Positions 9,972 to 40,472 are shown, numbered from the stretch's first letter. The stretch: 57,502 nucleotides of DNA from Candidatus Komeilibacteria bacterium (GCA_043801745.1 JAZDLR010000025.1:1-57502); one strand, 5' to 3'. Numbers and translations are program-made. Notes: generated from the letters alone by a model not told the origin.

Positions 9972-10025
9972 TTGACATAGTTTAATATATATGTTATTTT
10001 TTTACATTCGTCGTTCTCTTACAAC
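9972..10025 (+). promoter_or_regulatory. sigma70-like promoter followed by a boxA-like motif
   Basis: TTGACA(9972)-17-TATTTT with upstream TG; CGTTCTCTTACAAC at 10012. Confidence 0.5.
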
Positions 10026-10157
10026 CTAGGACTTACGCGGTTTAAATACCGCTCAATATAGATAGTGGCAAGCTAATAACCGGTCAAATAGCCGGAGTTT
10101 AGCACGCCAGAAAAAAGTAGCAGGCCTACTCGTGGGCGCGCTACGGAGGAAAATAAC

Positions 10158-10730
10158 ATGGGAAAGTCAGTTGTTGAGATCCGCCAGCTCGACAAGTTTG
10201 ACCGAGCTTTTGAAGCAGTTGGGGGTACACCCGCGGATTTTGACAAGATGTCTCAAGCAGATCTGTTGCGGCAGCTTCTTGGAGTTGTCCGCGGTAAGGC
10301 GGTCGTCGCCAAGATCGTCATTGATCTAGCAAAAGACCCCTTCTGTCCTAATAGCGGTACGGTAGAACCCGGTGATCACCAGAGGGGCGATGCCAACTTC
10401 GAGTGGGATCCCGATATGGTCGCCCTGTACCTGGATGAAGTTCAGATGGGTGGTCGTTTCATTAATGGTTACAAACTCCGTGAAAAGCTGATTGGAAAGC
10501 ACGTCTTTAACGCGAATGCGTTAGACTACCTGCTTGCCAATTCATACCTTATCCCTCGGGAGTGGAAGGGAAGGCGTATCTTCTTCTGGGGTACGATTTA
10601 TCGTAACTCCCGTGGCGTCCAGCATGTTCGTTATCTCTATTGGGGTAGCGATGGGCAGTGGGATTCGGGTTACCAATCGCTCGACATAGATGTGGACCCT
10701 TTCAGTCCCGCGCTTGTTCTGGTGGCTTAG
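10158..10730 (+). CDS. Hypothetical protein with Trp-rich C-terminus (possibly lectin-like)
   Basis: ACGGAGG SD; LDYLL..IP.EWKG..IFFWGTIYR motif. Confidence 0.8.
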   Translation: MGKSVVEIRQLDKFDRAFEAVGGTPADFDKMSQADLLRQLLGVVRGKAVVAKIVIDLAKDPFCPNSGTVEPGDHQRGDANFEWDPDMVALYLDEVQMGGRFINGYKLREKLIGKHVFNANALDYLLANSYLIPREWKGRRIFFWGTIYRNSRGVQHVRYLYWGSDGQWDSGYQSLDIDVDPFSPALVLVA

Positions 10731-10763
10731 TCCAGCGTAAACTTTTCCGGACATCGTGTCCGC

Positions 10764-10795
10764 AGAGCCCTGTGCAGCAATGTGCGGGGCTCTTT
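10764..10795 (+). terminator. Intrinsic terminator
   Basis: AGAGCCC...GGGCTCT followed by TT. Confidence 0.6.
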
Positions 10796-10800
10796 AAATT

Positions 10801-10957
10801 ACCTCACCCCCGCCCGCAACGCCTGAGCGTAGCAATGGCGGGCGGGCCAACCATCTCCTTGAAAAGGAGAGGGAGGAAGTGCTCCTAAATATCGTCCCTC
10901 TCCTTAATAAGGAGAGGACAGCCTGCCCGCCGAAGCTTTAGCGAAGGTGGGTGAGGT
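10801..10957. repeat. REP/MITE-like composite repeat, copy 1
   Basis: Ends ACCTCACCC/GGGTGAGGT, internal CTCTCCTT...AAGGAGAG hairpins, nested palindromes. Confidence 0.85.
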
Positions 10958-11006
10958 TTTTAGTTATTTGATATGGCGTGGTATAATATCAGTGAAATTT
11001 TTCCCC

Positions 11007-12449
11007 ATGTTTGACCATTTAGATCCACGTCCGGTATTGCAGAAGAATTGGCACCATCACATTTCTTTAAGTTTTTTGTTGGCCTCGTGTTTGATGTTAG
11101 TGTTGGCTTTTACGGCGCCGATAATTTCATTTACCCAGACCGAGCGGCCAGCCGGAGATCCGGTGGTCCGCGTTTGGGTTGATACTGACGCTGCTAAACA
11201 GAGCGAGGTTGTTGGTCCGGTAGAGAATTTAGAAGTAGCTCACCTGGTAATGCAATCGGATGATCCGGTGACTTTATACCGTTTGCGCTTGATTATAGAC
11301 GGTTTATATTTACCTACTGATTTAACCCTGCCGCGTCTTTATGTTGACGAAGTCCAGGTTGGCCATGACCGGAAAGTTAACAATGACGGAGTAATAACTT
11401 TTGAAACAAAGACAGCCGTTTTAACAGCCGGAACTCATGATATTGTTGTGCGCGCTAATTGGCTGGTTAATGGTCCGGGACATCTGTTAACGGCCCGTCT
11501 GGAGAGTGCCAAAGATATTATTTTTACCGCGCCGGGCAGCAATCCTACTGTTCAGGCCGTATTTCCTCTAAGTACCGGGGGTATAAGTTTTGTCTCAGCC
11601 GGTTCCTGGGTAATGGTGCAGCCAACTGATTTAGCGCCTCAAGCAGCCAGTGATGATCATGATTTGCAGCGTGTAGCTTTTTCTCTTCCTCTGGCTGCCA
11701 GAGCTGAAGCAATTACAGTTTCTAAAATTGTGCTGGGTTTTGAGACTAAGAAATTTATTCCTGTCAGCGTTTCTATTCTCAAGGACAGTACAGCAGTTAA
11801 AGTCTGGAATAATATTGTTATAGCTAATGATCAATATGTCTGGGATGTTCCCGGGTCTGATTTGGTAATTTCGCCGGATAAGATCAGCCAATTGCAGGTA
11901 ATCGTCCGGGGTAAAGCGGAGAGCGATCAGGCGCAAGTGAGTTTGTCGACCCGGCAAGTAGAGGGTACGGGGTTTAGTTCTGGCAGTAAGATTACTTGGC
12001 AGCCAGTAGATCCTTTAGTGCAAGACCGTCAGCTGGTTCATGATCAGCCAGCTTGGACTCTGGAATCGCCCGATTCTCTAACTGGCTATCGTTTACGCTT
12101 ACAAACCTTATCTCACGCCGGTATTGTTTTGAGTTCCTTAGTTTTACAGCTTACGGCCGAGGTCGCAACCGGATCATTACCGTGGAAAGTTTATCTGCAA
12201 GGAAAAGAAGTACCGGCAGAGTTTACCTGGTCAAAGCCAGACTTGATCCGGGTCAATTTTCAGCCCAAGATCACCGTCCAGAACAAAGATACTTTAGAAT
12301 TTAGAGCGACGGCTGATTCCACCGGAAAGAATCAGGCGGCAGTACGTCTATTACCAACGGAGTTTATTTGGGAAACTAAGTCTACTGACTGGTTTGCTGT
12401 TGCTGGTTTATTGTTACCGACGGCTCCGGCCGGTATGATTAATTTTTAG
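11007..12449 (+). CDS. Hypothetical secreted or membrane-anchored beta-rich protein
   Basis: N-terminal hydrophobic helix; TATAAT at 10982 favours ATG 11007. Confidence 0.7.
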   Translation: MFDHLDPRPVLQKNWHHHISLSFLLASCLMLVLAFTAPIISFTQTERPAGDPVVRVWVDTDAAKQSEVVGPVENLEVAHLVMQSDDPVTLYRLRLIIDGLYLPTDLTLPRLYVDEVQVGHDRKVNNDGVITFETKTAVLTAGTHDIVVRANWLVNGPGHLLTARLESAKDIIFTAPGSNPTVQAVFPLSTGGISFVSAGSWVMVQPTDLAPQAASDDHDLQRVAFSLPLAARAEAITVSKIVLGFETKKFIPVSVSILKDSTAVKVWNNIVIANDQYVWDVPGSDLVISPDKISQLQVIVRGKAESDQAQVSLSTRQVEGTGFSSGSKITWQPVDPLVQDRQLVHDQPAWTLESPDSLTGYRLRLQTLSHAGIVLSSLVLQLTAEVATGSLPWKVYLQGKEVPAEFTWSKPDLIRVNFQPKITVQNKDTLEFRATADSTGKNQAAVRLLPTEFIWETKSTDWFAVAGLLLPTAPAGMINF

Positions 12450-12485
12450 TTACATGCCAAGAGCGCGATTTGTCCCTACAATGGG

Positions 12486-13901
12486 ATGAAAAGCGATTCG
12501 ATGGCTAACAAAGCGATTGTTAGATTGGCAGTGTTGGGATTATTAGCTGGAATCTTGGTTTCCAGTTTTTTTGTTTTGTCCCCGCTATATTTATCGGGAA
12601 TTATTTTTGTGTTAGCGGGTATTTGTTGCTATTGGCGGCGGTTCATTTGGTTATTAATAGTTATTTTTTTTCTAATTGGTAATTGGCGAACACAAATGGT
12701 CATCCGTTATCAGCCGGCTGTCCCGGCGACAATTGATGCTCTGGCTGTTGTGCGTTACCGTGATTATAGTGATGATCAACAGAAGCTGCGGCTTCAGATT
12801 CGAGGTATACCTGGTGCTGTGCAGATCGCCGTTAATAGATTCCCGGTTTATCATTATGGTGACGTACTGCGCGTCCGTTGTCAGCCGCAGCTGACCAGTC
12901 AGGAAACAGAACAATCATGGCAGCGCCGTTTACAACTACAAGGTATTAGTGCCCGCTGTTTTTCTGCTGTTGTTTCTTATGATCATTCTTCAATCGATTG
13001 GCGTTCGCCATTTTTTACTTTTAAAGATTACATTATAAATGTTTACATTAAGACTCTGCCTGGCCCGGTGGCTGGTTTGATGCAAGCTATGATCGTTAAT
13101 GAGCGGGGAGAGGTGGCACGGGACACTACCAGTAATTTTAGCCGCAGCGGTTTAAGTCATATTGTAGCTATTTCCGGTATGAATATGACGTTGCTGATTA
13201 TTGCCGGTCAAACGTTTTTGGTCCGGCTGGGTTTACGGCGCCGGCAAACAGCAATTTTTTTGATTGTTGTCTTGACGGTGTACGTTATGATCATTGGGCT
13301 GCCAGCTTCAGCTGTACGGGCAGCATTGATGTCAAGCGTGGTTTTGTTGGGTTATTTGGTCCGGCGGCCGATTGATATAACTCATACGTTGTTACTGGTC
13401 GCCGGTATTTTGGCACTAGTGAATCCTCTGGCAGTTGTTTATGATATTGGTTGGCAATTATCCTTTTTGGCTTTAGCGGGATTAATTTGGTGGACGCCGT
13501 GGTGGACCAGGACGCTTCACTGGCTACCCGAGCGTTGGGGTTTGCAGGAATTGATCAGCGCCACGTTGGCGGCACAGATGTTAACTTGGCCGTTAATACT
13601 TTATTATTTTCAAATTTGGGCTCTGTGTTTTTTGCCAGCTAATATTTTAACTGTACCTTTGGTCGGACCCATTATGATCAGCGGCTTACTACTGCCGTTA
13701 GTCTGGTGGATTCCTATAGTTGGGGCGGTAATTAGTTTAGTTGTAACTTTGCTGATACGTTGGTTATTACTGGTTGTGACTACAGTGGGATCATCTTCCT
13801 GGGCAGTATTACCAATTCCTTTTTCATCAGTTGCTTTGTTACTGTCGGCCGGATTAATGATTATATTAACAAAATTAGTTAATGAAAAAAGCAGCCATTA
13901 G
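12486..13901 (+). CDS. comEC: ComEC/Rec2 competence membrane domain protein
   Basis: GLSHIVAISGMN, SAVRA, GWQLSF motifs. Confidence 0.92.
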   Translation: MKSDSMANKAIVRLAVLGLLAGILVSSFFVLSPLYLSGIIFVLAGICCYWRRFIWLLIVIFFLIGNWRTQMVIRYQPAVPATIDALAVVRYRDYSDDQQKLRLQIRGIPGAVQIAVNRFPVYHYGDVLRVRCQPQLTSQETEQSWQRRLQLQGISARCFSAVVSYDHSSIDWRSPFFTFKDYIINVYIKTLPGPVAGLMQAMIVNERGEVARDTTSNFSRSGLSHIVAISGMNMTLLIIAGQTFLVRLGLRRRQTAIFLIVVLTVYVMIIGLPASAVRAALMSSVVLLGYLVRRPIDITHTLLLVAGILALVNPLAVVYDIGWQLSFLALAGLIWWTPWWTRTLHWLPERWGLQELISATLAAQMLTWPLILYYFQIWALCFLPANILTVPLVGPIMISGLLLPLVWWIPIVGAVISLVVTLLIRWLLLVVTTVGSSSWAVLPIPFSSVALLLSAGLMIILTKLVNEKSSH

Positions 13902-14799
13902 TTTATTAGTGATCACAATGATCACCCTCTTAGGGCTGACCGTTGGATCTCAATTGATTTCTTCGGATTCAACTTTAGAGATCTCAGTTTTAGACGTTGG
14001 TCAGGGCGATAGCATCGTGGTGCGTACTCCGGATAATGTCAGCTTGGTCATTGACGCCAGCGCCGGTCATCAAGAAGTTGATGCTTTGGCCAAAATTCTA
14101 CCCTGGAATCAGCGGCATTTGGATTATCTGTTAATCACTCATCCGGATCTTGATCATTATGGTGGCGCGCGTTGGCTTTTGGAACGCTATACCATTGGTC
14201 AGGTATTATATAACGGTAACGAAGCTAACGTGTCAGCCGGTTTTAAACAATTTTTGGCTGATATCAGGCAGCGTGGTATTCCCTTACGGCTGGTGCAAGC
14301 AGGCGAGGTTATTCAGTGGCCTTCGGGTGTCCACTGGAAATTTTTATGGCCGCCGGCTGATTATCAAGCCGACAATACTAATGCCAGCTGCGTGGTCAGT
14401 AAAATATCCTGGGGTAGCGAAGATCTGCTACTGCCTGGCGATCTGCCTAGTGAGCAAGAAGCAATTCTGTTGACCCAACAGGATGTCAGTGCCGAAATTG
14501 TCAAAGCCGGTCATCACGGCAGCAAATTTTCTTCATCTTCGGCTTGGCTGCAAGCAGTTAGCCCAGAGTGGTGCCTGATTTCCGCTGGTCGCGACAATAG
14601 CTATGGCCACCCTAATTACGCCGCTCTGCAGCGGCTGCAGCATACAGGTTGCCGTATATTATCAACAATTGATAATGGGACGCTATCCTTCCGTTTTAGC
14701 TCGACCTCTATTGATTATTTGACTGCTCCCGGGTGGGATTTTTTCGGCTTGCCAATGGCGCCTCTTTTGGCTATACTGAACCCGTTACCTAATAAATGA
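13882..14799 (+). CDS. ComEC-type metallo-beta-lactamase domain protein (separate ORF)
   Basis: DVGQGD, THPDLDHYGG, GHHGS, NSYGHP. Confidence 0.9.
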   Translation: MKKAAISLLVITMITLLGLTVGSQLISSDSTLEISVLDVGQGDSIVVRTPDNVSLVIDASAGHQEVDALAKILPWNQRHLDYLLITHPDLDHYGGARWLLERYTIGQVLYNGNEANVSAGFKQFLADIRQRGIPLRLVQAGEVIQWPSGVHWKFLWPPADYQADNTNASCVVSKISWGSEDLLLPGDLPSEQEAILLTQQDVSAEIVKAGHHGSKFSSSSAWLQAVSPEWCLISAGRDNSYGHPNYAALQRLQHTGCRILSTIDNGTLSFRFSSTSIDYLTAPGWDFFGLPMAPLLAILNPLPNK

Positions 14800-14804
14800 A
14801 AACT

Positions 14805-15182
14805 ATGGCCGAAGGCAAAAAAATATTGCTCGTTGAAGACGAGGAGATGCTGGCTAACATGTATCAAGTGAAATTCCAGAATGATGGATTTCAATTGATC
14901 AAGGCTGGTAATGGGGAAGAGGGTTTGGTTTTAGCGGAGAAGGAAAAGCCCGACATGATTTTACTAGATGTTATCATGCCGAAGATGGACGGCTTTACGG
15001 TTCTTAAACGTCTGAAAGACAATCCTAGTACAAAAAATATTCCGGTTTTGCTATTGACCAATTTAGGTCAAGATGAGGACGTGAAAAAGGGCAATGAACT
15101 GGGAGCCGTTGGTTATTTAGTTAAAGCTAATATCACTCCTTCAGAAGTAGTGGCCAAAGTTAAGGAAGTGATGAAATTATAA
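14805..15182 (+). CDS. Single-domain response regulator (receiver)
   Basis: LLVEDE, LLDVIMPKMDG, LTN, LVK. Confidence 0.92.
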   Translation: MAEGKKILLVEDEEMLANMYQVKFQNDGFQLIKAGNGEEGLVLAEKEKPDMILLDVIMPKMDGFTVLKRLKDNPSTKNIPVLLLTNLGQDEDVKKGNELGAVGYLVKANITPSEVVAKVKEVMKL

Positions 15183-15183
15183 T

Positions 15184-15780
15184 ATGGCCCAGGAATTAAT
15201 TCAGAGAAGTTTAGTTTTGATTAAACCTGACGCCGTTAAGCGCGGTTTGATTGGTGAGATACTTTCGCGGTTAGAAAAATCCGGATTGAAAATCATTGGC
15301 CTGAAGATGGTGTGGGTTGATCAGGAGTTGGTGGGCCAGCATTATCCCGATGCCCGGACTGAATTATTAGAAGGCATGGGTAAGAAGACTTTAGAGACCT
15401 ACGAGAAGTACGGTAAAGATGCCAATGAAGAATTGGGTACTATGGATCCGGTAGAGATCGGTAGAATGATAAATCAATGGAATAGAGATTTTTTGTCCAG
15501 CGGTCCTGTAGTAGCTATCGTCTTTGAAGGTTTGCACGCGATTGATAATATCCGGATGATTGCCGGCAATACTTTGCCGGTGATGGCGCAGCCGGGAACG
15601 GTCCGCGGAGATTTTTCTCTTGATTCACCGGCCTTAGCTAATAGCAACAAACGCGCGGTGCGAAATATGATGCACGCTTCCGGCAATGAAGAAGAAGCCA
15701 AGTTCGAAATTCAGTTGTGGTTTCACGAAAACGAATTGCAGAATTATAAGCGAGCAGATGAAGAGGTAATGTTTGGTTAG
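15184..15780 (+). CDS. ndk: Nucleoside diphosphate kinase
   Basis: IKPDAVKRGL, PGTVRGDF, NMMHAS. Confidence 0.95.
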   Translation: MAQELIQRSLVLIKPDAVKRGLIGEILSRLEKSGLKIIGLKMVWVDQELVGQHYPDARTELLEGMGKKTLETYEKYGKDANEELGTMDPVEIGRMINQWNRDFLSSGPVVAIVFEGLHAIDNIRMIAGNTLPVMAQPGTVRGDFSLDSPALANSNKRAVRNMMHASGNEEEAKFEIQLWFHENELQNYKRADEEVMFG

Positions 15781-15908
15781 GAATTAGGCGTTAGCTTGTG
15801 GGTTGTAGTTTAAAGAAGAATCAGCAGAGCTGGCTCTTTTTTTGTCTGGTTGCTACCGAGTAGCGTGAGTGCTATGATAGAAGTAGTTCTCTACAACACT
15901 GGGTACAT

Positions 15909-16013
15909 ATGCTCTACATCCCTTTCTTTGGGAGTCTTATATTGTGGCTGGCCTTGGCCAGTTCACTGCGGACACCCACTTACCATCAAGGGGTAATGTG
16001 CTCTGTGGCCTAG
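15909..16013 (+). CDS. Putative 34-aa hydrophobic peptide (or an ncRNA locus)
   Basis: MLYIPFFGSLILWLALASS..., between a promoter (15850-15878) and a hairpin with T-tract. Confidence 0.3.
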   Translation: MLYIPFFGSLILWLALASSLRTPTYHQGVMCSVA

Positions 16014-16093
16014 AGAACGCAGGGAAAAAATCTCCGCGGTGCGCCATGATTAGCCAGAAGCGACCGGCATGGGGATTTTTTGTTTTGATAAAA

Positions 16094-16226
16094 ACCTCAC
16101 CCCGCCAGAGGCGGGCAGGCTGTCCTCTCCTTCTTAAGGAGAGGAACGTTGTTTATATGGCTCGTCGCTCTACTTAACCTCCGTGCGCTCTCCCTCTCCT
16201 TTTGAAGGAGAGGGTTGGGGTGAGGT
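16094..16226. repeat. REP/MITE-like composite repeat, copy 2
   Basis: ACCTCACCCC...GGGGTGAGGT with CCTCTCCTT...AAGGAGAGG hairpins. Confidence 0.85.
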
Positions 16227-16239
16227 AATGCCAAAAAGC

Positions 16240-16301
16240 TTGACCCCGTTAGAAGCTTCGCTTCTAACGGGGTTGACTTTTTGATTTAGGTGTGCTATAC
16301 T
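16240..16301 (+). promoter_or_regulatory. Promoter TTGACT-17-TATACT preceded by a CCCCGTTAGAAG...CTTCTAACGGGG palindrome
   Basis: Consensus spacing with extended TG; TTGAC on both sides of the palindrome. Confidence 0.7.
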
Positions 16302-16356
16302 GTATTAGTAAGGTAATTTTGTTTTTTGTTCACGTTATAATGCAGACACTTACATT

Positions 16357-18536: not shown

Positions 18537-18570
18537 ATAAATTTCACTGCGTCCTTTTCAGGAGGGGTTT

Positions 18571-18720
18571 ATGGCGGAATCTCAAGACTCGGCTGTTGAT
18601 GTCGAGCAAGCAAGGATCGAGCTGGAATTATCTCTGCCCGATCTCCGGCTTCAGCTGGAAGCTCTGGAGGCAGCTCAGCGAGTCACTACCGCTACGCTGC
18701 AACTGACATTTGACGTGTAG
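18571..18720 (+). CDS. 49-aa acidic small protein (not in the ORF track)
   Basis: GGAGG SD; MAESQDSAVDVEQARIELELSLPDLRLQLEALEAAQRVTTATLQLTFDV. Confidence 0.6.
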   Translation: MAESQDSAVDVEQARIELELSLPDLRLQLEALEAAQRVTTATLQLTFDV

Positions 18721-18782
18721 CTCAGCGTCAGAGTTCGAAAAAAAAGAACGCCACGGTGACGTGGCGTTCTTCATTATATAAG

Positions 18783-23068: not shown

Positions 23069-23187
23069 GTTTGGGGCTTGGAGCTAGGGACACGGGATTC
23101 GCGGGATTTTAAAAACCGCCGCAGGTTGCGGGGTAAGCAAGGTGCAGTGCCTTGTTTTTTTAGAATACCTCACAAATTATTTATATT

Positions 23188-23333
23188 ACCTCACCCACCT
23201 TCGCTAAAGCTTCGGCGGGCAGGCCTGTCCTCTCCTTCAAAAGGAGAGGAACGATATTTATATAGTTAGTCGCTCCTTTTCCATTTACCGCGCTACCTCC
23301 CTCTCCTTTTCAAGGAGAGGGTTGGGGTGAGGT
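23188..23333. repeat. REP/MITE-like composite repeat, copy 3
   Basis: Same termini; 23194-23223 is the exact reverse complement of 10922-10951. Confidence 0.85.
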
Positions 23334-23406
23334 ATTCAAAACAAAAAAATAAAACGCCGCGGCTACTATGTTTCAGTAGTTTCGCGGCGTCGGCAGTGGC
23401 TGAGTT

Positions 23407-23919
23407 CTATTGGTATAACGGCGTTCGGAACTCTACCAGCAGTGTCGGAATGTCACCGTCGTTGATCAGACCCGTGATCAGTGGTCCGGACAGATCGCGC
23501 GTATCAGGCGGAAGCAGGTAGAGATGGGCGTCCACCAGAACCGGACTCGGCTCGTCTTCGGTGCGGTCAACAATAACTGCCCAGAGACGGTCACATTCTG
23601 TTTCGAGGTGTACGTCAAACTCCTGCAGAATTGCGGACAGATGATTTCGCTCTCTTCTTAATCGGCTACCAGACGGCTGCAGAATCACGACACAGGACGG
23701 GTCGTTGAAAGTCGGATCAGCGGCGTTGATATTGAAAGCTTCGTAGCCGCTGATCAGGGGGATGTCTTGTCCCATGAAAGGCAGTGATTCAACGTCCTTC
23801 TGATCAAAAGAGATATCCTTTAAGACGCCGGCAACCTGCTGCCAAGGTATGGCTATCCGTTGACTGCCGAGCCAGCAGACAACTACTTGTAAAGAACTGG
23901 GTCCTCCAGTTTTTTTCAT
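23407..23919 (-). CDS. CheW-like domain protein
   Basis: VVCWLGSQRIAIP..QV..V, F.GQDIPLI, AVIVD, ITGL pattern; ACGGAGG SD before ATG 23919. Confidence 0.6.
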   Translation of the reverse strand: MKKTGGPSSLQVVVCWLGSQRIAIPWQQVAGVLKDISFDQKDVESLPFMGQDIPLISGYEAFNINAADPTFNDPSCVVILQPSGSRLRRERNHLSAILQEFDVHLETECDRLWAVIVDRTEDEPSPVLVDAHLYLLPPDTRDLSGPLITGLINDGDIPTLLVEFRTPLYQ

Positions 23920-24075
23920 TGTTGCCTCCGTAAAAATTGTTAGGGTTGTTAGCAACAGTACTACATTTCCTGTCATTGTCAATATTCGTTGAATTAACTG
24001 AAAACATTGCGCCCTATTATCTAAATAAGTAACCCCCGAACCGTCGTGGTCCGGGGGCGATAGGGTAGCTGTGTT

Positions 24076-24516
24076 TTAGAGAACGCGTATTTTCCTCTGA
24101 CGCGCCTCCTTGAGAGAAAGGGGGTAGCAGGGTGGCACATAAGGGCGTAACGCGTAGTCAGTGATGAAGATTGTCGTCATCCCTTTTGTGACGCGGAGTG
24201 CCACTTCATTGTGCCTAACCAGCGGCTTGTGGAGAAAGCGGGAACATTCAGGACTGTCATCGTGATTGAACCCGATGTAGACTCCTCGCGGCTCCTGCGC
24301 GTTGACTGTGGCTAAGGGAATAACAATGACTTGCTGGGTTCTGTTGTTGCCTCCAAAATAGAGAGTTGTTCCGACAAGCGGTGCAGCGCCAGGCAGAGGA
24401 TCTTCGCGAACCAGTGTTATTGGCGTCAGACCGTTGGTCCCGAACCGCGCATACCACTTACAAAATGGATTGCGCCGCCACCAGTTTTTTTTCAAAATCC
24501 TTAAAGGATTTGGCAT
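24076..24516 (-). CDS. Orphan hypothetical protein
   Basis: ACGGAGG SD before ATG 24516; own promoter and terminator. Confidence 0.65.
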   Translation of the reverse strand: MPNPLRILKKNWWRRNPFCKWYARFGTNGLTPITLVREDPLPGAAPLVGTTLYFGGNNRTQQVIVIPLATVNAQEPRGVYIGFNHDDSPECSRFLHKPLVRHNEVALRVTKGMTTIFITDYALRPYVPPCYPLSLKEARQRKIRVL

Positions 24517-24664
24517 TCTCCCTCCGTTTACCTCAAGTGGAATACAAAGAGCATTTAACGCTCGGACTTTAACATAAGAAGTCGTTTTTTTCAAGCAAAA
24601 AACCGCCGGGTCCTATCTTCATGTTGACAGATAGAAACTCGGCGGTCGAACTTGGGTTCGGCAA

Positions 24665-24967
24665 TTACGGCCGGCCAAACCACTGAAAGTAAATGGGTCC
24701 GCCGGTGATATGGGTTTCGCCGATGATTACCTTCCAGCCAGTACTCCGTGTAAACACAACCGATCTTGGCGTGAACGATTCGGGGTGGTTGGGAAACAGG
24801 AGTGTGACAGCGTCTTCACCTTGCGTCTCAAAGAACTGTACGCCTTCAACTAGCAGGAAGAACCGGTCATCAATACCGACAACCCCTCCGACGATTTGTG
24901 GGATGTTTATTGGCAGACCAGCGTCTTTCAAAAATGCCATGCGGGCAAATCGTGCTTCATTGTTCAT
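24665..24967 (-). CDS. Orphan hypothetical protein
   Basis: TACGGAGGT SD; hairpin plus T-tract downstream. Confidence 0.7.
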   Translation of the reverse strand: MNNEARFARMAFLKDAGLPINIPQIVGGVVGIDDRFFLLVEGVQFFETQGEDAVTLLFPNHPESFTPRSVVFTRSTGWKVIIGETHITGGPIYFQWFGRP

Positions 24968-25134
24968 TCTTACCTCCGTAAGATGTAACGAACGTGATCA
25001 AGCTCAGATGAGCCTGCAACATTTCTTAAGGTTCAAATTATTATGACTTGAACCCTAGGAAATGGGGGAGTCAGTGTTGCTGACTCCCCGCGGCATCTAG
25101 GACCGAAGTCTTAAATGCCGGCCAAGGATATATG

Positions 25135-26400
25135 TCACTGGGCGTAGGGCTTGCAGACCTTGCCCTTGAGGTCGACGAAACCCAGATGAACAGTTCTCGC
25201 CTTCTTGTCCAGAACCTGGGGTGTGAACGGTTCGGCCTTGAGCCCACCCAGGCAGACGGCCGAGGGCACGCTGACAAAGCGCGGCACCGGCACGGGTATG
25301 ATCCTGGGCTCTGGGGTTTCATGCATCACCTCACGCTCAGCATCTGCCATCTTCTTCTTGATTCCCCTGACCATCTGACGGATCAGGGTGACCACTGCGA
25401 CCAAAGCCGCGGCAATCACGCCGGTGAGTAGGACCAGGCCGAGTAGCGAAAGGCTCGGCTTCAGGTGGACCACTGCACGCCAGAAGCCGTAATACAGCAA
25501 CAGTGCCGCCGGGCTGAAGGGCAACCGGTAGGGACGGAAGAAGAAAGCCACATCTTCCAGGTCCCGGCCGCGGGCATTGTGCCAGACCCAGCCGAAGGGA
25601 TATTTCCACGGCAGGATCAGCGGCCGAACGTCCAGGTCGTATTGCCCGACCAGAATTCCGGCGATAAGGTTCACCCATGCCGTCCACCACTTCAAGATGA
25701 ACTCGAAGGGGAAGATCAGGGTGACGAAGGGCCAACCGATCATTCTCATCTTCCTGAACTTGCACTGGTCAGCCGGCTTGCCGAACCAGTTGTAGCGGTT
25801 GAGCCACTTTTTCTCCCAGGCCGGCGGCTCCGGAGCAAACATCTCCTGCGCCACCTTGACGCTGAAAGAGAAGCTATCGAACCGCAGGTTTTTGACCATG
25901 TCCTGATTCCTGCAGAAATCCGTACGCTGGAATTCTCCGGAATGGTTCACGAGGTCTCCCGATCTGTCAGCCACCATGGAGGTATTGTAAATGCTGTTCC
26001 TCATGATCATGAGTGACTTCCAGATCCGGGGGTAATCGTCTGTGATCCTGCCGTTCTTCAGCGTCTCGCGGCGCCAAAGCAGGACGGCATGAATCTTGAC
26101 TTCGCCGGGCCGGCGCAGCCAGATTCGCTCCATGCACTTTTCCGCTTCCACCAGGAAGCGCTGCTCCAGATAGGGACGGTCAGGATAAGCCACCACGATC
26201 AGGACCAGGGGATTGAGTCCGACTGCCTTAAAGAAGGCTGCCCCGGCTGGCTTCAGACACCAGCGGACCCACATGGTTGAATCAACCCCATTCTGGTCGT
26301 CAATGGCAAATTCCCAGGCATTTTCCGGTGGTGCCGGCGGGGGTGCGGTTGGTGCCGTCACTATCCCTGAGTTTGGCTGTGGAACCCTGTTCTTGGACAT
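25135..26400 (-). CDS. Hypothetical membrane protein, visibly GC-richer than the flanks
   Basis: AAGGAG SD before ATG 26400; C-terminal TM segments. Confidence 0.8.
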   Translation of the reverse strand: MSKNRVPQPNSGIVTAPTAPPPAPPENAWEFAIDDQNGVDSTMWVRWCLKPAGAAFFKAVGLNPLVLIVVAYPDRPYLEQRFLVEAEKCMERIWLRRPGEVKIHAVLLWRRETLKNGRITDDYPRIWKSLMIMRNSIYNTSMVADRSGDLVNHSGEFQRTDFCRNQDMVKNLRFDSFSFSVKVAQEMFAPEPPAWEKKWLNRYNWFGKPADQCKFRKMRMIGWPFVTLIFPFEFILKWWTAWVNLIAGILVGQYDLDVRPLILPWKYPFGWVWHNARGRDLEDVAFFFRPYRLPFSPAALLLYYGFWRAVVHLKPSLSLLGLVLLTGVIAAALVAVVTLIRQMVRGIKKKMADAEREVMHETPEPRIIPVPVPRFVSVPSAVCLGGLKAEPFTPQVLDKKARTVHLGFVDLKGKVCKPYAQ

Positions 26401-26587
26401 ATTCTCCTTTCTTGTAGGCATCTTCCTCTGGAAGCATGCCAGGTGAAATGTACGACTTGGATCTGATCCGAATAGCACATTTAAGCAAATTATTGATAAT
26501 TTGTCAAGTCTTAAGTTATACGGGGTTTTTCACTTTACTTTTCTCTTACTTTGCACTAAGGTAATTTTAATTAAAAGTGCCCTAGAT

Positions 26588-28534: not shown

Positions 28535-28609
28535 TAATAAACACCCCCGCCCACTCATCCCGCAACGGTTGAGTGGGCGGGGTTCGTTGAAACAATAGTT
28601 CATTACATT

Positions 28610-28954
28610 ATGCCCACACATCCAGCTCATAAGACAGAAGAAACAGTCGTGGAGTCACGCATCCGCATTAAGATCAAAGCTTTTGATCATAAAATTATTG
28701 ATCAATCGACTAAAACAATTATTGACGCTGCTTTACGCAGTGGCGCTAAAGTAGTTGGTCCGATTCCTTTGCCGACGGAGAAACAGAAGTACACCGTGCT
28801 TCGTTCCACTTTCGTGCATAAGAATGCTCGCGACCAATTCGAAATGCGCACGCATAAGCGCTTAATTGATATTGTTGATCCGCAGGCGAAGACAATCGAT
28901 GCTTTGACAAGTTTGAACCTTCCGGCTGGTGTGGACATTGAAATTAAGATGTGA
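28610..28954 (+). CDS. rpsJ: 30S ribosomal protein uS10
   Basis: [17 protein letters not shown]. Confidence 0.99.
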
Positions 28955-34235: not shown

Positions 34236-34236
34236 T

Positions 34237-34503: not shown

Positions 34504-34533
34504 AATTTAAAGTTGAAAGTTTAAAATTATAGT

Positions 34534-34905: not shown

Positions 34906-34906
34906 T

Positions 34907-35182
34907 ATGTCCAAGATTCGTTTAAAAACTAATGATCAGGTTTTGGTCTTATCCGGTAAAGATAAAGGTAAGAAAGGTAAAATCTTACAGGTCTTGCGCC
35001 AGGATGATTTAGTTGTGGTGGAAGGAGTTAATACTATGTATAAATATATGCGCCGGCAGCGAAAGAATGAAACTGGGCAGCGGATAGAATTTTTTGGTCC
35101 GATTCACGTCAGTAAAGTTAAGAAATTAGCCAGCGAGGCGACGATTAAGCCGGTCACGGAAACTGCGCCTGATAAAAAATAA
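34907..35182 (+). CDS. rplX: 50S ribosomal protein uL24
   Basis: SGKDKGKKG KOW motif, VEGVN. Confidence 0.97.
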   Translation: MSKIRLKTNDQVLVLSGKDKGKKGKILQVLRQDDLVVVEGVNTMYKYMRRQRKNETGQRIEFFGPIHVSKVKKLASEATIKPVTETAPDKK

Positions 35183-35727
35183 TGATTATGAATTTGCGCG
35201 AAAAATACCAGAAACAAGTTATTAAGAGTCTGCAGACCAGCCTCGGTGTTAATAATGTGCACGCCGTACCCAAGGTTGAGAAGGTGGTTTTGAATGTCGG
35301 TTTGAGTAAATCCTTATCGGACCGCACTTTTACTGATATTGCCGTCAGCACGTTACAGCGCATTACTGGTCAGAAGCCGGTGTTAACTAAAGCTAAGAAA
35401 TCGATTTCTAATTTTAAGATCCGTGAAGGCATGGTGGTAGGAGCGATGGTGACTTTGCGCGGTCAGAAGATGTACGATTTTTTGGAAAAAATGATCAATA
35501 TTACCTTTCCCCGAATCCGTGACTTTCATGGTTTGGATCCGAAGAAAGGCTTTGATGGTCATGGCAATTTTGGTATCGGTTTCCGCGAACATATTGTATT
35601 TCCGGAAATTAAATCCGATGAAATCGAAAAATTGCATGGTCTGGAAGTGGCAGTACGCACTACTGCTAAGAATAACAACGAATGCTTAATGCTTTTGCGA
35701 GCTTTGGGCTTTCCTTTTAAGAAATAA
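35182..35727 (+). CDS. rplE: 50S ribosomal protein uL5
   Basis: [14 protein letters not shown]. Confidence 0.99.
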
Positions 35728-35729
35728 AT

Positions 35730-35924
35730 ATGGCAACAGAAGCACAAATCGCCAAATCAACCCGCTCGTTAACTAAGCCGAAATATTCTACTCGTGTGGT
35801 GCGGCGTTGTTGGCGTTGTGGCAAGAAATCGGCTTACATGCGTAAGTTTCGTTTGTGCCGTATTTGTTTCCGCGAATTAGCTAATAAAGGTGATATTCCG
35901 GGCGTACGGAAATCAAGCTGGTAA
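35730..35924 (+). CDS. rpsN: 30S ribosomal protein uS14, type Z (Zn-binding)
   Basis: CWRC...CRICFRE, KSSW. Confidence 0.98.
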
Positions 35925-35980
35925 TGACTAATTAATTGAATAATAGATTAATTGAATAATTGAATTCTCTCCCAACTTCT

Positions 35981-36397
35981 ATGATGACCGATCCTATAGC
36001 AGATTTATTAACACGAATTCGTAACGCTTCTGCCGTTAAAAAGGCTGAGGTGGTGTTGCCGTATTCCCGTTTACGGCATGAAGTGGCCAAAGTATTGGAA
36101 AACGAGAAATATGTTTTGCGTACCGAGAAAATTCCGGCGGTTAAACCCGGCGAAGATGGCCCTCGCTACGATCAGCTGCGGATTGTGATGCGCTACCGTA
36201 GCAATGGCAGTCCGGTTATCCGACACATTAAACGCGTTAGTCGTCCCAGCCGTAAAACGTACGTCACAGTCGATAAGATCCCGACGGTTCTGAATGGTTT
36301 GGGTTTAGCTGTGCTGTCAACTTCTAAGGGTCTATTGACAAATATTGAAGCTCGAAAAGCTAAAATCGGTGGAGAATTAATGTTTGAAATTTGGTAA
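35981..36397 (+). CDS. rpsH: 30S ribosomal protein uS8
   Basis: DPIADLLTRIRNA, STSKG. Confidence 0.99.
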   Translation: MMTDPIADLLTRIRNASAVKKAEVVLPYSRLRHEVAKVLENEKYVLRTEKIPAVKPGEDGPRYDQLRIVMRYRSNGSPVIRHIKRVSRPSRKTYVTVDKIPTVLNGLGLAVLSTSKGLLTNIEARKAKIGGELMFEIW

Positions 36398-36401
36398 TTA
36401 T

Positions 36402-36947
36402 ATGTCACGAATTGGTAAAAAAAATATTACTTTACCGGCTAATGTCCAAGTGGCGATTAATGGTCAGGACGTTACGGTTACAGGTCCCAAAGGAACCTTA
36501 TCTTTAGTTATGCCGCCGATTACCACCTTGGCGCAGAAGGGACAGGAATTAACCGTTGCTATTGCTGATGAAACCAGCAAAGATCAGCGTGCCCTTTGGG
36601 GTTTGGCCCGTTCGCTGGTGAATAATCTGGTGCTGGGAGTAACTGAAGGTTTTAAAATTCAATTAGAAATTAACGGTATTGGTTTCAAGGCTGCTATGCA
36701 GGGCAAGGACTTGCTCTTGAACGTCGGTTTTTCTCATCCGGTTGTCTATAAAGCTAAAGAAGGTATTACTTTCAGCGTCGAGAAAAATGTTATTTCCATT
36801 GAAGGCATTGATAAACAGTTGGTGGGACAAACAGCCGCGGAAATTCGCCGCATCAAGAAACCTGAACCCTACAAAGGAAAGGGTATCAAGTACCTGGATG
36901 AAACCATCCGCCGTAAAGCCGGTAAGGTGGTTAAAGCTGGCGGTTAA
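36402..36947 (+). CDS. rplF: 50S ribosomal protein uL6
   Basis: MSRIGK, PEPYKGKGI. Confidence 0.99.
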   Translation: MSRIGKKNITLPANVQVAINGQDVTVTGPKGTLSLVMPPITTLAQKGQELTVAIADETSKDQRALWGLARSLVNNLVLGVTEGFKIQLEINGIGFKAAMQGKDLLLNVGFSHPVVYKAKEGITFSVEKNVISIEGIDKQLVGQTAAEIRRIKKPEPYKGKGIKYLDETIRRKAGKVVKAGG

Positions 36948-36996
36948 TTAAGCTTGTAGCTAGTAGCTTGTAGCTGGTAGCTTAGAGAATAAATTT

Positions 36997-37350
36997 ATGA
37001 AAGATAAGCAAATTATCAAGAAAACTATTGCCCAGCGCCGGGCTCGCCGCACGCGTGCTAAGGTAGCTGTTAGTGGACGCCCTCGTCTGTCGGTTTTTCG
37101 CAGTCTTAAACATTTATACGCTCAGATTATTGATAAAGATGGTCAGGTGTTGGTTGCTGCCCGTAGTCAGGAGATTAAGGATAAAGTGCTTAAAGGAGTG
37201 GCTCTGGCCGGAGCAGTGGGCGAATTGATTGCTGTCAAAGCTAAGGCTAAGAAGATCGAGATTGTTGTTTTTGATAAAGGTAAATTTAAATATCACGGGC
37301 AAGTAAAAGCCGTAGCTGACGGTGCCCGTAAGGAAGGATTACAATTTTAA
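36997..37350 (+). CDS. rplR: 50S ribosomal protein uL18
   Basis: RPRLSVFRS, YHGQVKA. Confidence 0.98.
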   Translation: MKDKQIIKKTIAQRRARRTRAKVAVSGRPRLSVFRSLKHLYAQIIDKDGQVLVAARSQEIKDKVLKGVALAGAVGELIAVKAKAKKIEIVVFDKGKFKYHGQVKAVADGARKEGLQF

Positions 37351-37351
37351 T

Positions 37352-37963
37352 ATGGAAGCACAAGCACAACAACCAATGAGATCCGGCGGACCGGAGCGTG
37401 GTCAGCGTCCGGGTATGCGCCGTGGCCCGTCGCGTGGCGGCCGTGGTCAGCGTCCGGAGCGTGAACGTGACGAGTTTGATCAGAAAATGATTGACTTGGC
37501 CCGGGTTACCCGTGTCATGGCCGGCGGCAAGCGTATGCGTTTCCGTGCCTGTATTGTGGTTGGTGACCGCAAAGGTAAATTGGGCTGGGCTTTGGCTAAA
37601 GGCAGCGATGTGTCTCTGGCTATTAATAAAGCAGTAACCAAGGCCAAGAAGCATTTAATTACGGTCCGTAGCGTCAAAGGCACTATTCCTCATTCCTTGG
37701 AAGTTAAATATAAGGCTGCCCGGATTCTCTTTAAACCGGCTAAGCTAGGTACCGGTATCAAAGCTGGTGGTGCTGTACGGCAAGTGTTAGAATTATCTGG
37801 TATTGAGAATGTCTCGGCCAAGATCATTGGTTCCAGCAATAAGATCAATAATGTTCACGCCACCTTTAAGGCTTTGAGTAGTTTAAAATATGGTCAGCTG
37901 GATGAAGCGACTGAAAGCGCCAAGCGTGAAGCTAGAGAGCGGACTAAATCAGAAAAGAAATAA
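37352..37963 (+). CDS. rpsE: 30S ribosomal protein uS5
   Basis: RVTRVMAGGKR, GTGIKAGG; RG-rich N-terminus. Confidence 0.99.
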   Translation: MEAQAQQPMRSGGPERGQRPGMRRGPSRGGRGQRPERERDEFDQKMIDLARVTRVMAGGKRMRFRACIVVGDRKGKLGWALAKGSDVSLAINKAVTKAKKHLITVRSVKGTIPHSLEVKYKAARILFKPAKLGTGIKAGGAVRQVLELSGIENVSAKIIGSSNKINNVHATFKALSSLKYGQLDEATESAKREARERTKSEKK

Positions 37964-37965
37964 TT

Positions 37966-38463
37966 ATGTTGGGTTTACACACATTAAAGAAACATCCGCA
38001 TTCAACGCATCGTAAGAAGCGTCTGGGTCGCGGTAATGCTAGTGGTCACGGCAGCTATTCAACCCGCGGTCAGAAAGGACAACGTTCTCGTTCCGGCGGT
38101 AAGGGCGGTCTGAAGTTGAAAGGTATCCGTGGTTATTTATTACGTATTCCGAAAACACGTGGTTTTAAATCTTCAGCCTTGCGTCCAGTAGCGATTTCTT
38201 TGAATCAATTAGTTGCTGCCTTTGAGGCTAAAGAAGTGATTACTATCAAGAAATTAATTGACCGCGGTTTTATTTCTGGCGCTTCCCGCGTTCCGATTAA
38301 GATTATTGGTAATACTCCTATTGTTAAAGTTTTGACCGTTAAAACTCATTTCATTACTCCGGCAGCTAAAGCAGCTATTGAAGCAGCTGGTGGTTCAGTA
38401 GAAATATTAGTCTGGAAGCAGGCTAAGCCAGCCGCTAAAGAAGCGGTTGTTAATCAACAATAA
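37966..38463 (+). CDS. rplO: 50S ribosomal protein uL15
   Basis: RLGRG.SG.G...RGQKGQRSRSG. Confidence 0.98.
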   Translation: MLGLHTLKKHPHSTHRKKRLGRGNASGHGSYSTRGQKGQRSRSGGKGGLKLKGIRGYLLRIPKTRGFKSSALRPVAISLNQLVAAFEAKEVITIKKLIDRGFISGASRVPIKIIGNTPIVKVLTVKTHFITPAAKAAIEAAGGSVEILVWKQAKPAAKEAVVNQQ

Positions 38464-38471
38464 ATCAACCT

Positions 38472-39746
38472 ATGAATCGTCTGCGGCAAATTTGGCAGGC
38501 CAAAGATCTACGCAATAAAATCTTGTTTGTTTTGGCCATGTTGGTAGTTTACCGTATTGCCGCCCATATCCCCATACCCGGTATTGATGCCAGTAATTTG
38601 AAAGATTTTTTTTCAAGTAATCAAATTTTAGGTTTGGTTAATGTTTTTTCCGGCGGTGGTTTAATGAATTTTTCTATTGTTATGTTGGGCGTCGGTCCCT
38701 ATATCACGGCCTCTATTATTTTGCAGTTGCTCGTCATGATCGTTCCTAAGCTGGAAGAGATTCAGAAAGAAGGGGAGTCAGGTCAGCGGCGCATTAATAA
38801 TTACACCCGTTGGCTGACAGTGCCGTTGGCTATGATCAACGCTTATGGCTTTATAGTTTTATTACAACGTCAGGGACGCGGTTTGATTGGTGAATTAAAT
38901 ATTTTTCAGTGGATTACGGCCATTGTAGTGGCAACAGCCGGCACGATGCTGCTGGTTTGGATTGGTGAGTTGATTACGACCAAGAAAGTTGGTAACGGTA
39001 CTTCATTAATAATCTTTGCCGGTATTGTTGCTTCTTTGCCGGGTTCTATTGGTAATACCTTGGCCGTTTTTGATGCTTCCTCGCAGATTTTTAACATAGT
39101 AATGTTTATTGTGATTGCTATAGTAACTATTATTTCCATCGTCATTATCAGTGAGGGTCAGCGAAATATTCCGGTTTCTTACGCCCGGCAAATACGCGGC
39201 GGATCAACTTTTGGCGGTGTCAATACTCATTTACCTTTGCGCGTGAATCAGGCGGGCGTTATTCCGATTATTTTCGCAATTTCTGTCGTGTTGTTCCCGC
39301 CGTTAGTGGCACGTTTTTTCCAGACTTCAACTGTTGCCTGGGTTGCTAGTTTTTCTGCTCAGGTGATCAATTTTTTTGGTAATCAATTATATTACGGTAT
39401 TATGTATTTTGTTCTGGTTTTTGCCTTTACGTATTTTTATACGGCGGTAATTTTTAAGCCTGATCAGATCGCCGAAAATTTACAAAAGCAGGGTGGTTTT
39501 GTCCCCGGTATACGTCCCGGTCAGCAAACAGCCGAATATCTAATGACAGTGATGAACCGTATTATTTTGGCCGGCGCTTTATTTTTAGGCATTATCTCTG
39601 TTTTGCCGATTATTGTTCAGCAAGCAACCGGCATGGCTACTATGACTATTGGTGGTACCAGTATTTTGATTGTCGTGGCTGTAGTCATTGAAACCGTCAA
39701 ACAAATTGACGCCCAGTTGGTGATGAGGGATTACGACGGGCTGTAG
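38472..39746 (+). CDS. secY: Preprotein translocase SecY
   Basis: GVGPYITASII, GVIPIIFA, PGIRPG. Confidence 0.99.
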   Translation: MNRLRQIWQAKDLRNKILFVLAMLVVYRIAAHIPIPGIDASNLKDFFSSNQILGLVNVFSGGGLMNFSIVMLGVGPYITASIILQLLVMIVPKLEEIQKEGESGQRRINNYTRWLTVPLAMINAYGFIVLLQRQGRGLIGELNIFQWITAIVVATAGTMLLVWIGELITTKKVGNGTSLIIFAGIVASLPGSIGNTLAVFDASSQIFNIVMFIVIAIVTIISIVIISEGQRNIPVSYARQIRGGSTFGGVNTHLPLRVNQAGVIPIIFAISVVLFPPLVARFFQTSTVAWVASFSAQVINFFGNQLYYGIMYFVLVFAFTYFYTAVIFKPDQIAENLQKQGGFVPGIRPGQQTAEYLMTVMNRIILAGALFLGIISVLPIIVQQATGMATMTIGGTSILIVVAVVIETVKQIDAQLVMRDYDGL

Positions 39747-39810
39747 GAAAAATTTTGATTCAAAGCGTCTATTTAGGCATAATAATTTAGATATTATTTT
39801 TTGTCGGGGG

Positions 39811-39862
39811 TTGACACAAAAGTCTTGCTGTGTTATAGTCATTTGTCTCTTTGGTTCTTTGA
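39811..39862 (+). promoter_or_regulatory. Promoter plus boxA-like motif of the secY-adk insert
   Basis: TTGACA-17-TATAGT with extended TG; GGTTCTTTGA at 39853. Confidence 0.7.
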
Positions 39863-39892
39863 TTTTAAATCTTCCACCGTAACGGAGGTATC

Positions 39893-40204
39893 ATGGCTCG
39901 CAGGAAAAACCCCATCATTGCCGGCAATTGCGTCGGCATTGAGGATCGGACCGGTCATGTTTTCGTCTATGACCCTTCCAAACCGGAGGAGAAGCTGTTG
40001 TTGCCCGATGGCAGACGCTTTATCCCTACGCACTTAGCCAGAAAGAGGGGTCCTCTGGTCTTTCGTCTAATGGCTGAAGTCATGGCCACTAGCAGAGGCT
40101 TGGCTGTGTCGGGTGTCGGTCTTCGGCAAGATGCTGACGTTTTCTTTTGTCAGCTGATTAAGCTGAAGCGCCGGCTGAGACGAAAAAAGAAGGTAGCAGC
40201 ATAA
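39893..40204 (+). CDS. Orphan basic hypothetical protein
   Basis: ACGGAGGT SD. Confidence 0.7.
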   Translation: MARRKNPIIAGNCVGIEDRTGHVFVYDPSKPEEKLLLPDGRRFIPTHLARKRGPLVFRLMAEVMATSRGLAVSGVGLRQDADVFFCQLIKLKRRLRRKKKVAA

Positions 40205-40225
40205 GATCAGAAAAGGAGGAACAGC

Positions 40226-40393
40226 ATGCCGCTTTTTTTTGTCGAGCCGGTAGTAGCCGGTGCCGAATGGGTTTCGGTGACCAACGTGATTTATGTCGGC
40301 GGGATCGCTGTCATGATTGCTGTGGTCATTGGCTTGTGGCAGTCAGCCATTGACGCCCTAAGAAGCCTGAAAACCCATCAGGTGAAACGCTAG
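40226..40393 (+). CDS. 55-aa single-TM peptide (not in the ORF track)
   Basis: AAGGAGG SD; hydrophobic core; terminator at about 40394-40433. Confidence 0.6.
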   Translation: MPLFFVEPVVAGAEWVSVTNVIYVGGIAVMIAVVIGLWQSAIDALRSLKTHQVKR

Positions 40394-40472
40394 ACAGGGG
40401 GGCCGGTCCGTAAGGACTAGGCCCCTTTTTGTTTGTAATAAAGGTCTAGTTGGGGTAAAATGCCTGCGTTCC

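Follow-up and report, generated by a model that had tools for sequence, protein, structure and literature searches.

The question raised by contig C11 of a Candidatus Komeilibacteria bacterium (GCA_043801745.1, JAZDLR010000025.1:1-57502) is what to make of the small open reading frames (ORFs) that stand between its core genes, led by Shine-Dalgarno (SD) sites and in several cases provided with a promoter, a BoxA-like word and a terminator of their own. This contig, over its whole length of 57,502 nt, is referred to as the window. A first-pass annotation had taken the ORFs for autonomously expressed, possibly Nus-protected single-gene cassettes. The best explanation, which we consider probable, is that they are members of a class of accessory units, spread over the whole genome and leadered, with a promoter and a BoxA-like word, the latter being the BoxA of this lineage, and that the units are swapped among Patescibacteria.

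The architecture was searched for with a strict pattern, TTGAC[AT]-16..18-TANNNT-4..16-box, in which the box is G[CT]TC[TG]TT; the reversed sequence served as control. In the genome under study (G000) this yielded 11 matches versus 1 on the reversed sequence, and all 11 were intergenic. Seven lie at most 250 nt upstream of a called gene with a high guanine-plus-cytosine (GC) content and three upstream of SD-led ORFs that were missed by the gene caller; the remaining one is the promoter of the 16S ribosomal RNA (rRNA) gene, and none is found ahead of an SD-less core gene. A search of 31 genomes of the order with TTGACA-16..18-TANNNT-0..28-GTTCTTT gave 96 matches versus 5 in the backward control. 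The box never begins less than 4 nt past the -10 hexamer: the most frequent distance is 5 nt (14 matches), 29 matches fall at 7–11 nt and 23 at 13–16 nt, with a tail to 29 nt. The word is thus both enriched and positionally constrained upstream of the orphan genes, in agreement with what the first-pass annotation had proposed. The combination GTTCTTTAC-8..38-GGAG-4..12-ATG was found 20 times versus 3 in the control, and 301 genomes of the phylum contained ~356 promoter-box matches versus ~48 in hand-counted controls, with a match in 145 genomes.

The units of the window, together with one further box, are as follows.

9972..10000, plus strand: promoter of the 10158 unit, TTGACA, 17 nt, TATTTT, with TG in front of TATTTT
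10012..10025, plus strand: BoxA-like word CGTTCTCTTACAAC, 12 nt past the -10 hexamer of the 10158 unit
10143..10149, plus strand: SD ACGGAGG of the 10158 unit
10158..10730, plus strand: ORF of 190 residues, GC 0.52, without a Pfam, PHROG or PADLOC match
10765..10797, plus strand: terminator of the 10158 unit, a hairpin and T-run read from the sequence
15850..16085, plus strand: box-promoter unit without a convincing ORF; TTGCTA-17-TATGAT, 7 nt, then GTTCTCTACAAC at 15886; hairpin and T-run at ~16040-16085
18560..18772, plus strand: 49-residue unit; SD AGGAGG at 18560, ORF 18571-18720 (GC 0.55), terminator 18743-18772
23340..23982, minus strand: 170-residue unit; TTGACA 23982-23977, SD ACGGAGG 23931-23925, ORF 23919-23407, terminator 23390-23340
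24032..24594, minus strand: 146-residue unit; promoter 24594-24566, TGCTCTTTGTA 24553-24543, SD ACGGAGG 24527-24521, ORF 24516-24076, terminator 24058-24032
24595..24994, minus strand: 100-residue unit; CGTTCGTTACATC 24994-24982, SD ACGGAGG 24979-24973, ORF 24967-24665, terminator 24646-24595
25065..26507, minus strand: 421-residue unit; TTGACA 26507-26502, SD AGAAAGGAG 26412-26404, ORF 26400-25135 (GC 0.58), hairpin 25090-25065
28583..28594, plus strand: box-like GTTCGTTGAAAC, 16 nt before the start of rpsJ (S10/NusE) at 28610 and directly 3' of the tuf terminator hairpin
39811..40431, plus strand: two-gene unit in the secY-adk gap; TTGACA-17-TATAGT 39811-39839, GGTTCTTTGA 39853-39862, SD ACGGAGG at 39882, first ORF 39893-40204
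40212..40431, plus strand: second gene of the same unit; SD AAAGGAGG at 40212, ORF 40226-40393, terminator 40397-40431

The first-pass annotation was built on five ACGGAGG sites, three GGAG(G) sites and five boxA-like words; every one of them is present where it had been placed, and at all five sites ACGGAGG is 4–8 nt ahead of an ATG. The ORFs of the units are GC-elevated (0.51–0.58 versus ~0.45). Promoter-like sites are seen for 10158, 15886, 23919, 24516, 26400 and 39893, and hairpins with T-runs for all units of the window, which bears out the assertion that several orphans have a promoter and terminator of their own; no promoter of its own was seen in the sequence for the 18571 ORF. The unit at 15850-16085, with ~190 nt between box-promoter and terminator, may be a small RNA or a tiny peptide gene. 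Ten window proteins were submitted to PHROG and PADLOC without a match, and the nine compared with Pfam (all but that of 18571) had no match there; the sole row, for 40226, was below the Pfam cut-off. The other genes of the window include those for FtsA/FtsZ, NrdR, a release factor, ComEC, EF-G, EF-Tu, the S10-spc ribosomal cluster, SecY, Adk and DnaB, a content typical of a small genome of the candidate phyla radiation (CPR, Patescibacteria).

Translation starts and the high-GC gene class

The assembly of G000 measures 1.087 Mb in 26 contigs, has a GC content of ~0.45 and is 98.8% complete. Genes were called with our own ORF and codon-score caller (1040 genes, covering 84% of the genome) and divided by GC content into low (<0.48), intermediate and high (at least 0.51). 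Counting from the start of the longest ORF, 5 of 814 low-GC, 6 of 84 intermediate and 49 of 142 high-GC genes had GGAGG at -18 to -3; for the high-GC genes the number rises to 72 of 142 when any early start is counted. Relative to first-ATG starts, the high-GC genes have a sharp GGAG/GAGG peak 4–9 nt upstream (7, 18, 24, 20, 16 and 9 per 100), and in the low-GC genes there is no peak, these words never exceeding 1 per 100 whatever the distance. The difference in SD use between orphan and core genes that was first noticed in the window thus holds over the genome. A -10-like hexamer ends 4–9 nt before the start in 160 of 807 low-GC genes versus 1 of 147 high-GC genes and, although the peak is modest, this fits leaderless transcription of some core genes. 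Overall, SD sites are not used by the core genes, some of which appear to be leaderless. The 3' tail of the 16S rRNA is canonical (GGATCACCTCCTTTCT); loss of the anti-SD sequence in some Parcubacteria has been described (PMC9297842).

The high-GC genes are arranged in about 91 runs, or islets, over the 1.09-Mb genome, 60 of which are single genes, and their proteins are almost all mutually unrelated. Outside the window, 100 of 137 high-GC genes had no Pfam match at E 1e-4. Matches among the high-GC genes include those to phage Mu Gam and gp30.3, to a zeta-like kinase, to STAS and helix-turn-helix (HTH) proteins, and the members of an island for the salvage of nicotinamide adenine dinucleotide (NAD). 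The latter (contig C21, 29650-42821) is an 11-gene, GC-elevated, SD-led island with enzymes of NAD salvage and synthesis (PncA-like, NAPRTase, NAD synthase and others). Genome-wide, terminators were modestly enriched (38 of 131 versus 90 of 494, p 0.01).

The proposal that ACGGAGG is a shared and defining SD of the cassettes had to be abandoned. The genome holds 54 copies versus 44.8 expected from a Markov model, so that the word is not over-represented, and it is one of three common variants: the two bases before GGAGG in the SDs of high-GC genes (n=73) are AA in 22, AC in 15 and CA in 14 cases. Only its position is non-random; 20 copies precede an ORF of at least 100 residues, and in 19 of these the GC of the ORF is at least 0.48. 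The AC variant makes up 5 of 6 SDs in the window versus 10 of 67 elsewhere (binomial 4e-4), the window having been picked for that very feature. The eight bases upstream of the high-GC GGAGG SDs are A/C-rich and G/T-poor.

The BoxA-like word and its relation to BoxA

Intergenic leaders of up to 200 nt were compared between 127 high-GC and 533 low-GC genes. TTGACA was present in 56 high-GC versus 46 low-GC leaders (p 3e-19) and GTTCTT in 18 versus 10 (p 1e-7); the corresponding numbers were 44 versus 26 for AGGAGG, 16 versus 3 for ACGGAGG and 5 versus 0 for GGTTCTTT. When the leaders are aligned on TTGACA, the GTTC-type word begins 30–37 nt past it, just beyond the -10, and 19 of 55 high-GC versus 1 of 29 low-GC leaders had GTTC[TG] or TTCTT at 32–50 nt from TTGACA (p 8e-4). 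With a five-fold cross-validated matrix, 26 of 99 high-GC versus 18 of 335 low-GC held-out leaders scored at least 8 bits (Mann-Whitney p 2e-10).

What follows the box was assessed in the relatives. Downstream of 20 box-promoters across the order, an ORF of at least 40 residues was found within 200 nt in 18 cases, 16 of which were GC-richer than their locus; 11 of the 15 ORFs tested had no Pfam match, and none of the 20 had rRNA downstream. Rfam gave no match on 39 box-promoter loci apart from two transfer RNAs (tRNAs). At 20 loci of the phylum, SD-led ORFs and one tRNA were found under the control of the box-promoter; in six genomes, all of a single family, it is a conserved non-coding stretch that is driven. 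This stretch of ~100 nt (TGTGGATATCTTAGGTTTCTCCCTTTGTCTGGGGTG..., loci L105, L106 and L108-L111, all of one Patescibacteria family) had no Rfam match at the gathering score and may be a small RNA.

The box might mask the ribosome-binding site by acting as an anti-SD, but as a general mechanism this was rejected. In 24 leaders the mean pairing was 0.14 versus 0.09 with the box shuffled, and the pairing probability of box and SD exceeded 0.4 in only ~5 of the 24.

The gamma-proteobacterial consensus of BoxA, as given in PMC5725501, is GYTCTTTAANA. The cassette forms GTTCTTTAC(A/C)A, GTTCTTTGA and GTTCTTTAACA match 8–11 of its 11 positions, the full GTTCTTTAACA being carried by G019 and G022, and the core GYTCTTT or GTTC[TG]TT is present in the box words. 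The 16S promoter (TTGACA-17-TAAACT) is followed, after 10 nt, by GCTCTTTGTAGCC; the exact 11-mer TGCTCTTTGTA occurs only twice in the genome, in the 16S leader, where its promoter distance equals that of the cassette boxes, and in the leader of the 24516 unit. The same source reads BoxA upstream of suhB, rpsJ or nusB as Nus autoregulation, mainly by blocking translation. In G000, the 45 nt ahead of nusB hold three boxes (GCTCTTTC, GTTCTTTAC and GTTCTTTCAC), as the BoxA reading predicts; a box word precedes nusB in 7 of 30 genomes (from an alignment read by eye), with near-variants in others. Within 110 nt upstream of rpsJ, G[CT]TC[TG]TT was found at 10 of 29 loci of relatives versus 0 of 72 other ORFs there (Fisher p 1e-6); the controls gave 0 antisense and 1 on the reversed sequence, and the background density is 0.028 per 110 nt. 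The genes for NusB and S10 are both present. Judged from sequence, the box precedes 16S rRNA, rpsJ and nusB, and its placement ahead of the latter two is the published signature of Nus autoregulation. The candidate target RNA of NusB-S10 would be GUUCUUUAC in the cassette form and GCUCUUUGUA in the 16S form.

In principle, the word could be a promoter-proximal initiation signal only, that is, the purine start and T-rich initial region of strong leadered promoters, with no role for Nus; the cassettes would then have it simply as leadered genes. The commonest box has its G 5–6 nt past the -10, where the start site is expected, and box-promoters also drive 16S rRNA, tRNA and conserved non-coding RNA; moreover, PMC12641261 describes, for bacterial promoters, a 'start' element as well as T-rich initial regions that are specific to lineages. 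However, half or more of the boxes lie 7–29 nt past the -10 and still far exceed the control (96 versus 5), the boxes of rpsJ and nusB come after a terminator or stop codon without a promoter, and the extended word GTTCTTTA(A/C)(A/C)A agrees with BoxA beyond the T-tract. We therefore regard a pure initiation signal as doubtful.

Several points weigh against a lineage-specific BoxA at the head of a class of accessory units. The motif is weak (~7 bits), no more than one-quarter to one-third of the units have it, and about half of the matches place the box at the predicted start site. Since tRNA and conserved non-coding RNA are also driven by it, the box-promoter is not cassette-specific across the phylum. 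The 16S box of the genome (GCTCTTTGTA) is unlike the cassette form (GTTCTTTAC), and close to the 23S promoter no clear box is seen, the leader having only GCTCTTCGA, near the mature end; by regular expression, the 16S leaders of G021 and G017 have no box and that of G022 has one. The rpsJ box of G000 and its congeners G001 and G002 directly adjoins the hairpin of the tuf terminator, of which it could be the U-tract. Of the two genes that the first-pass annotation had named in connection with Nus, nusB is encoded and searches with two models detected no rho in the 98.8% complete assembly, which makes protection from Rho an unlikely role of the box. Finally, the gene calls and the GC cut-off that sets the gene classes are crude, the kin genomes in the comparative counts are not independent of each other, and promoters and transcript starts are sequence predictions throughout.

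A unit of this class has a predicted sigma70-type promoter (TTGACA-17-TANNNT) and carries G[CT]TC[TG]TT at, or no more than ~15 nt from, the predicted 5' end of the transcript. The leader is A/C-rich and G-poor with a GGAGG-type SD 4–9 nt before the start codon; it is followed by a GC-elevated ORF, usually without a known family, and often by a hairpin terminator. The 5' word may serve as an RNA site for NusB-S10 and so tie the expression of the unit to Nus and the state of ribosome synthesis, either through translational repression where the box is near the SD, as in Escherichia coli suhB, or through modification of RNA polymerase. A wider proposal can be offered only tentatively: NusB-S10, acting via a 5'-terminal BoxA, might be a phylum-wide regulator of a mobile, SD-led gene pool. 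There would then be two regimes, a leaderless or SD-less core and a BoxA-gated accessory set coupled to ribosome synthesis, and the GC-richness would come from recombination (GC-biased gene conversion).

Some further features of the rRNA genes were noted. The 16S and 23S rRNA genes are on separate contigs with a promoter each, and the 16S rRNA gene has an insertion near its 5' end (contig C20, 65600-65760). A small palindrome, CCCGTTAGAAGC..GCTTCTAACGGG, abuts TTGAC -35 boxes at 16243-16273 of the window and at ~65040-65070 of contig C20; these boxes include the -35 of the 16S promoter.

Variability and proposed exchange of the units

The gaps that hold the units differ in content between relatives. 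In the secY-adk gap, G000 has the two-gene unit, and G001 and G002 have a different, AAGGAG-led ORF of 91 residues; the gap is ~180–190 nt long in G012 and G013 and ~2.9 kb in G007, and in G019 a box-promoter directly follows secY. The fusA-tuf gap contains SD-led, GC-elevated small ORFs antisense to the flanking genes in every relative examined, and their content varies: there are five unrelated ORFs in G001, only the 100-residue gene is shared between G008 and G000 (51% identity), and only the 421-residue gene between G007 and G000 (51–53% identity). The array of G001 carries the same boxes. The 10158 unit and the neighbouring 126-residue gene are missing after the release-factor gene in G001 and G002, where the spacer is 92 nt versus 1038 nt; the exact insertion borders at 10158 are not fixable, the congeners being only ~70% identical. 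The reading of the cassettes as self-contained units between core genes is thus supported, and at all three places they were not fixed among the relatives.

Of 401 genomes sampled from the phylum, 33 have a member of the family of the 190-residue protein, with only a weak match in the order; for this protein, a protein atlas returned only unnamed Patescibacteria clusters. All nine homologs examined are SD-led and have a GC of 0.51–0.62 versus 0.39–0.47 for their locus. The 421-residue protein has 2 homologs among 5.8 billion clusters, and of 86 genomes of the order 3 encode it, G000 included; the atlas gave nothing usable for it. Upstream of distant homologs of the 190-residue protein (L094, L095 and L101) we observed a conserved leader of ~70 nt, AAGGTGG ... 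CCACC.G.ACCTT, with an inner hairpin whose pairing is preserved although its sequence differs, so that the leader may act as a cis-regulatory RNA.

The elevated GC and third-codon-position GC (GC3), together with an SD use that differs from that of the core genes, might suggest that the units were recently acquired from a donor rich in GC, for example a host bacterium, and retain its promoter and SD; the larger metabolic islands, such as NAD salvage on contig C21, indeed look like ordinary transfers. For the units this is very unlikely, as relatives of the tested proteins are found in Patescibacteria, each of the nine homologs is GC-richer than its own host locus, the box architecture recurs across the phylum and the 421-residue protein has so few homologs.

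One of three viral scans yielded a relative of the 190-residue protein, which is 44% identical and encoded on a viral contig of 41.5 kb. This relative, the Mu Gam and gp30.3 matches among the high-GC genes, and the promoter-ORF-terminator layout with atypical composition would suit phage-derived morons or prophage debris with phage-style expression signals. Yet the viral homolog is AT-rich (GC 0.40) and lacks both SD and box, the other two scans gave no relative, none of the ten window proteins had a PHROG match, and the units are single and located between core genes at ~91 places outside prophages. A phage origin is, in our view, improbable.

The fusA-tuf array, with small ORFs in one direction and a content that varies between relatives, also recalls an integron-like or other site-specific cassette system. 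The first-pass annotation had noted the lack of an integron integrase, and this was confirmed: the window has no tyrosine recombinase (PF00589), the only two of the genome being on contigs C5 and C3. No repeat common to the cassettes was found, the hairpins between cassettes are all different, no attC-like site was seen, and each cassette has its own promoter. A ~150-nt BoxC-like repeat of CCTCTCCTT...AAGGAGAGG hairpins occurs next to three units of the window, at 10800-10960, 16090-16240 and 23170-23340, and 21 times in the genome. It was rejected as a cassette border and shows no clear link to the islets: a high-GC gene is found within 150 nt of 5 of the 21 copies, versus 14% of random intergenic sites. 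Insertion by such a system is thus extremely improbable.

As the flanks of the hot spots are very conserved and ComEC is present, we infer that the units are exchanged by homologous recombination in these flanks. The places that the units occupy, in the fusA-tuf and secY-adk gaps and behind the release-factor gene, all lie between genes of high conservation. The units would form a gene pool shared among Patescibacteria, from which they are exchanged by such recombination, perhaps after DNA uptake through the ComEC encoded in the window; a site-specific integrase would not be needed. Elsewhere in the window, at 47262-47552 and directly 3' of tRNA-Lys (47197-47273), there are two repeats ~200 nt apart, both of which open with a copy of the tRNA-Lys 3' end and may be an integration remnant.

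Genetic exchange and genomic islands in Patescibacteria have been published (PMC12455944). A full-text search retrieved nothing that joins Patescibacteria, leaderless and Shine-Dalgarno, and among the papers listed for the candidate phyla radiation and Shine-Dalgarno there was none that, judged by title, bears on these units. What is new, with no record found in the literature, is the shared promoter and BoxA-like leader of the units and the place of the word before rpsJ and nusB in this radiation. Nus factors are usually seen as helpers of rRNA synthesis with few autoregulatory targets; if the box is a working BoxA, a major uncultured radiation would have a large Nus regulon of accessory genes. 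The combination of promoter, box and SD would then provide a sequence handle for the flexible gene pool of Patescibacteria in metagenomes, and would help to explain how SD-led genes are expressed in a genome that mostly ignores SD sites. Even without Nus, the uniform module and the hot spots by translation genes describe a way in which such minimal genomes would gain and swap genes without integrases.

Comparison with known systems

The closest parallel is with BoxA in mRNA leaders, such as those of E. coli suhB, rpsJ and others (Baniulyte et al. 2017, PMC5725501). The core GYTCTTT, often extended to GYTCTTTA(A/C)NA, its predicted location in the 5' leader ~10–130 nt from the start codon, and its occurrence before 16S rRNA, rpsJ and nusB are shared. 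In contrast to those leaders, the word heads dozens of unrelated accessory genes, with whose predicted transcripts it starts or nearly so; Rho was not found here, and NusB-NusE binding is only putative.

The units resemble flexible genomic islets at recombination hot spots and laterally acquired islets (PMC12455944) in having a variable content at fixed spots, a patchy spread, an atypical composition and no nearby integrase. They differ from these islets in that most consist of a single gene and all share a uniform module for expression, and in that their GC-richness persists in every host examined, so that no drift to the base composition of the host is seen.

Phage morons, a concept of Hendrix and colleagues, are autonomous promoter-ORF-terminator units of atypical composition that lie between prophage genes, whereas the flanks here are fusA, tuf, secY, adk, the release-factor gene and ComEC. 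With integron cassettes the units have in common one locus with an array of small, variable ORFs in one direction, but there is no attC, no adjacent IntI-type integrase, and each unit has its own promoter. Finally, mixed leaderless and SD-led initiation in one genome is a recognized class of GeneMarkS-2; in contrast to such mixed genomes, the split observed here is between core and accessory genes and is tied to GC content and the BoxA-like leader.

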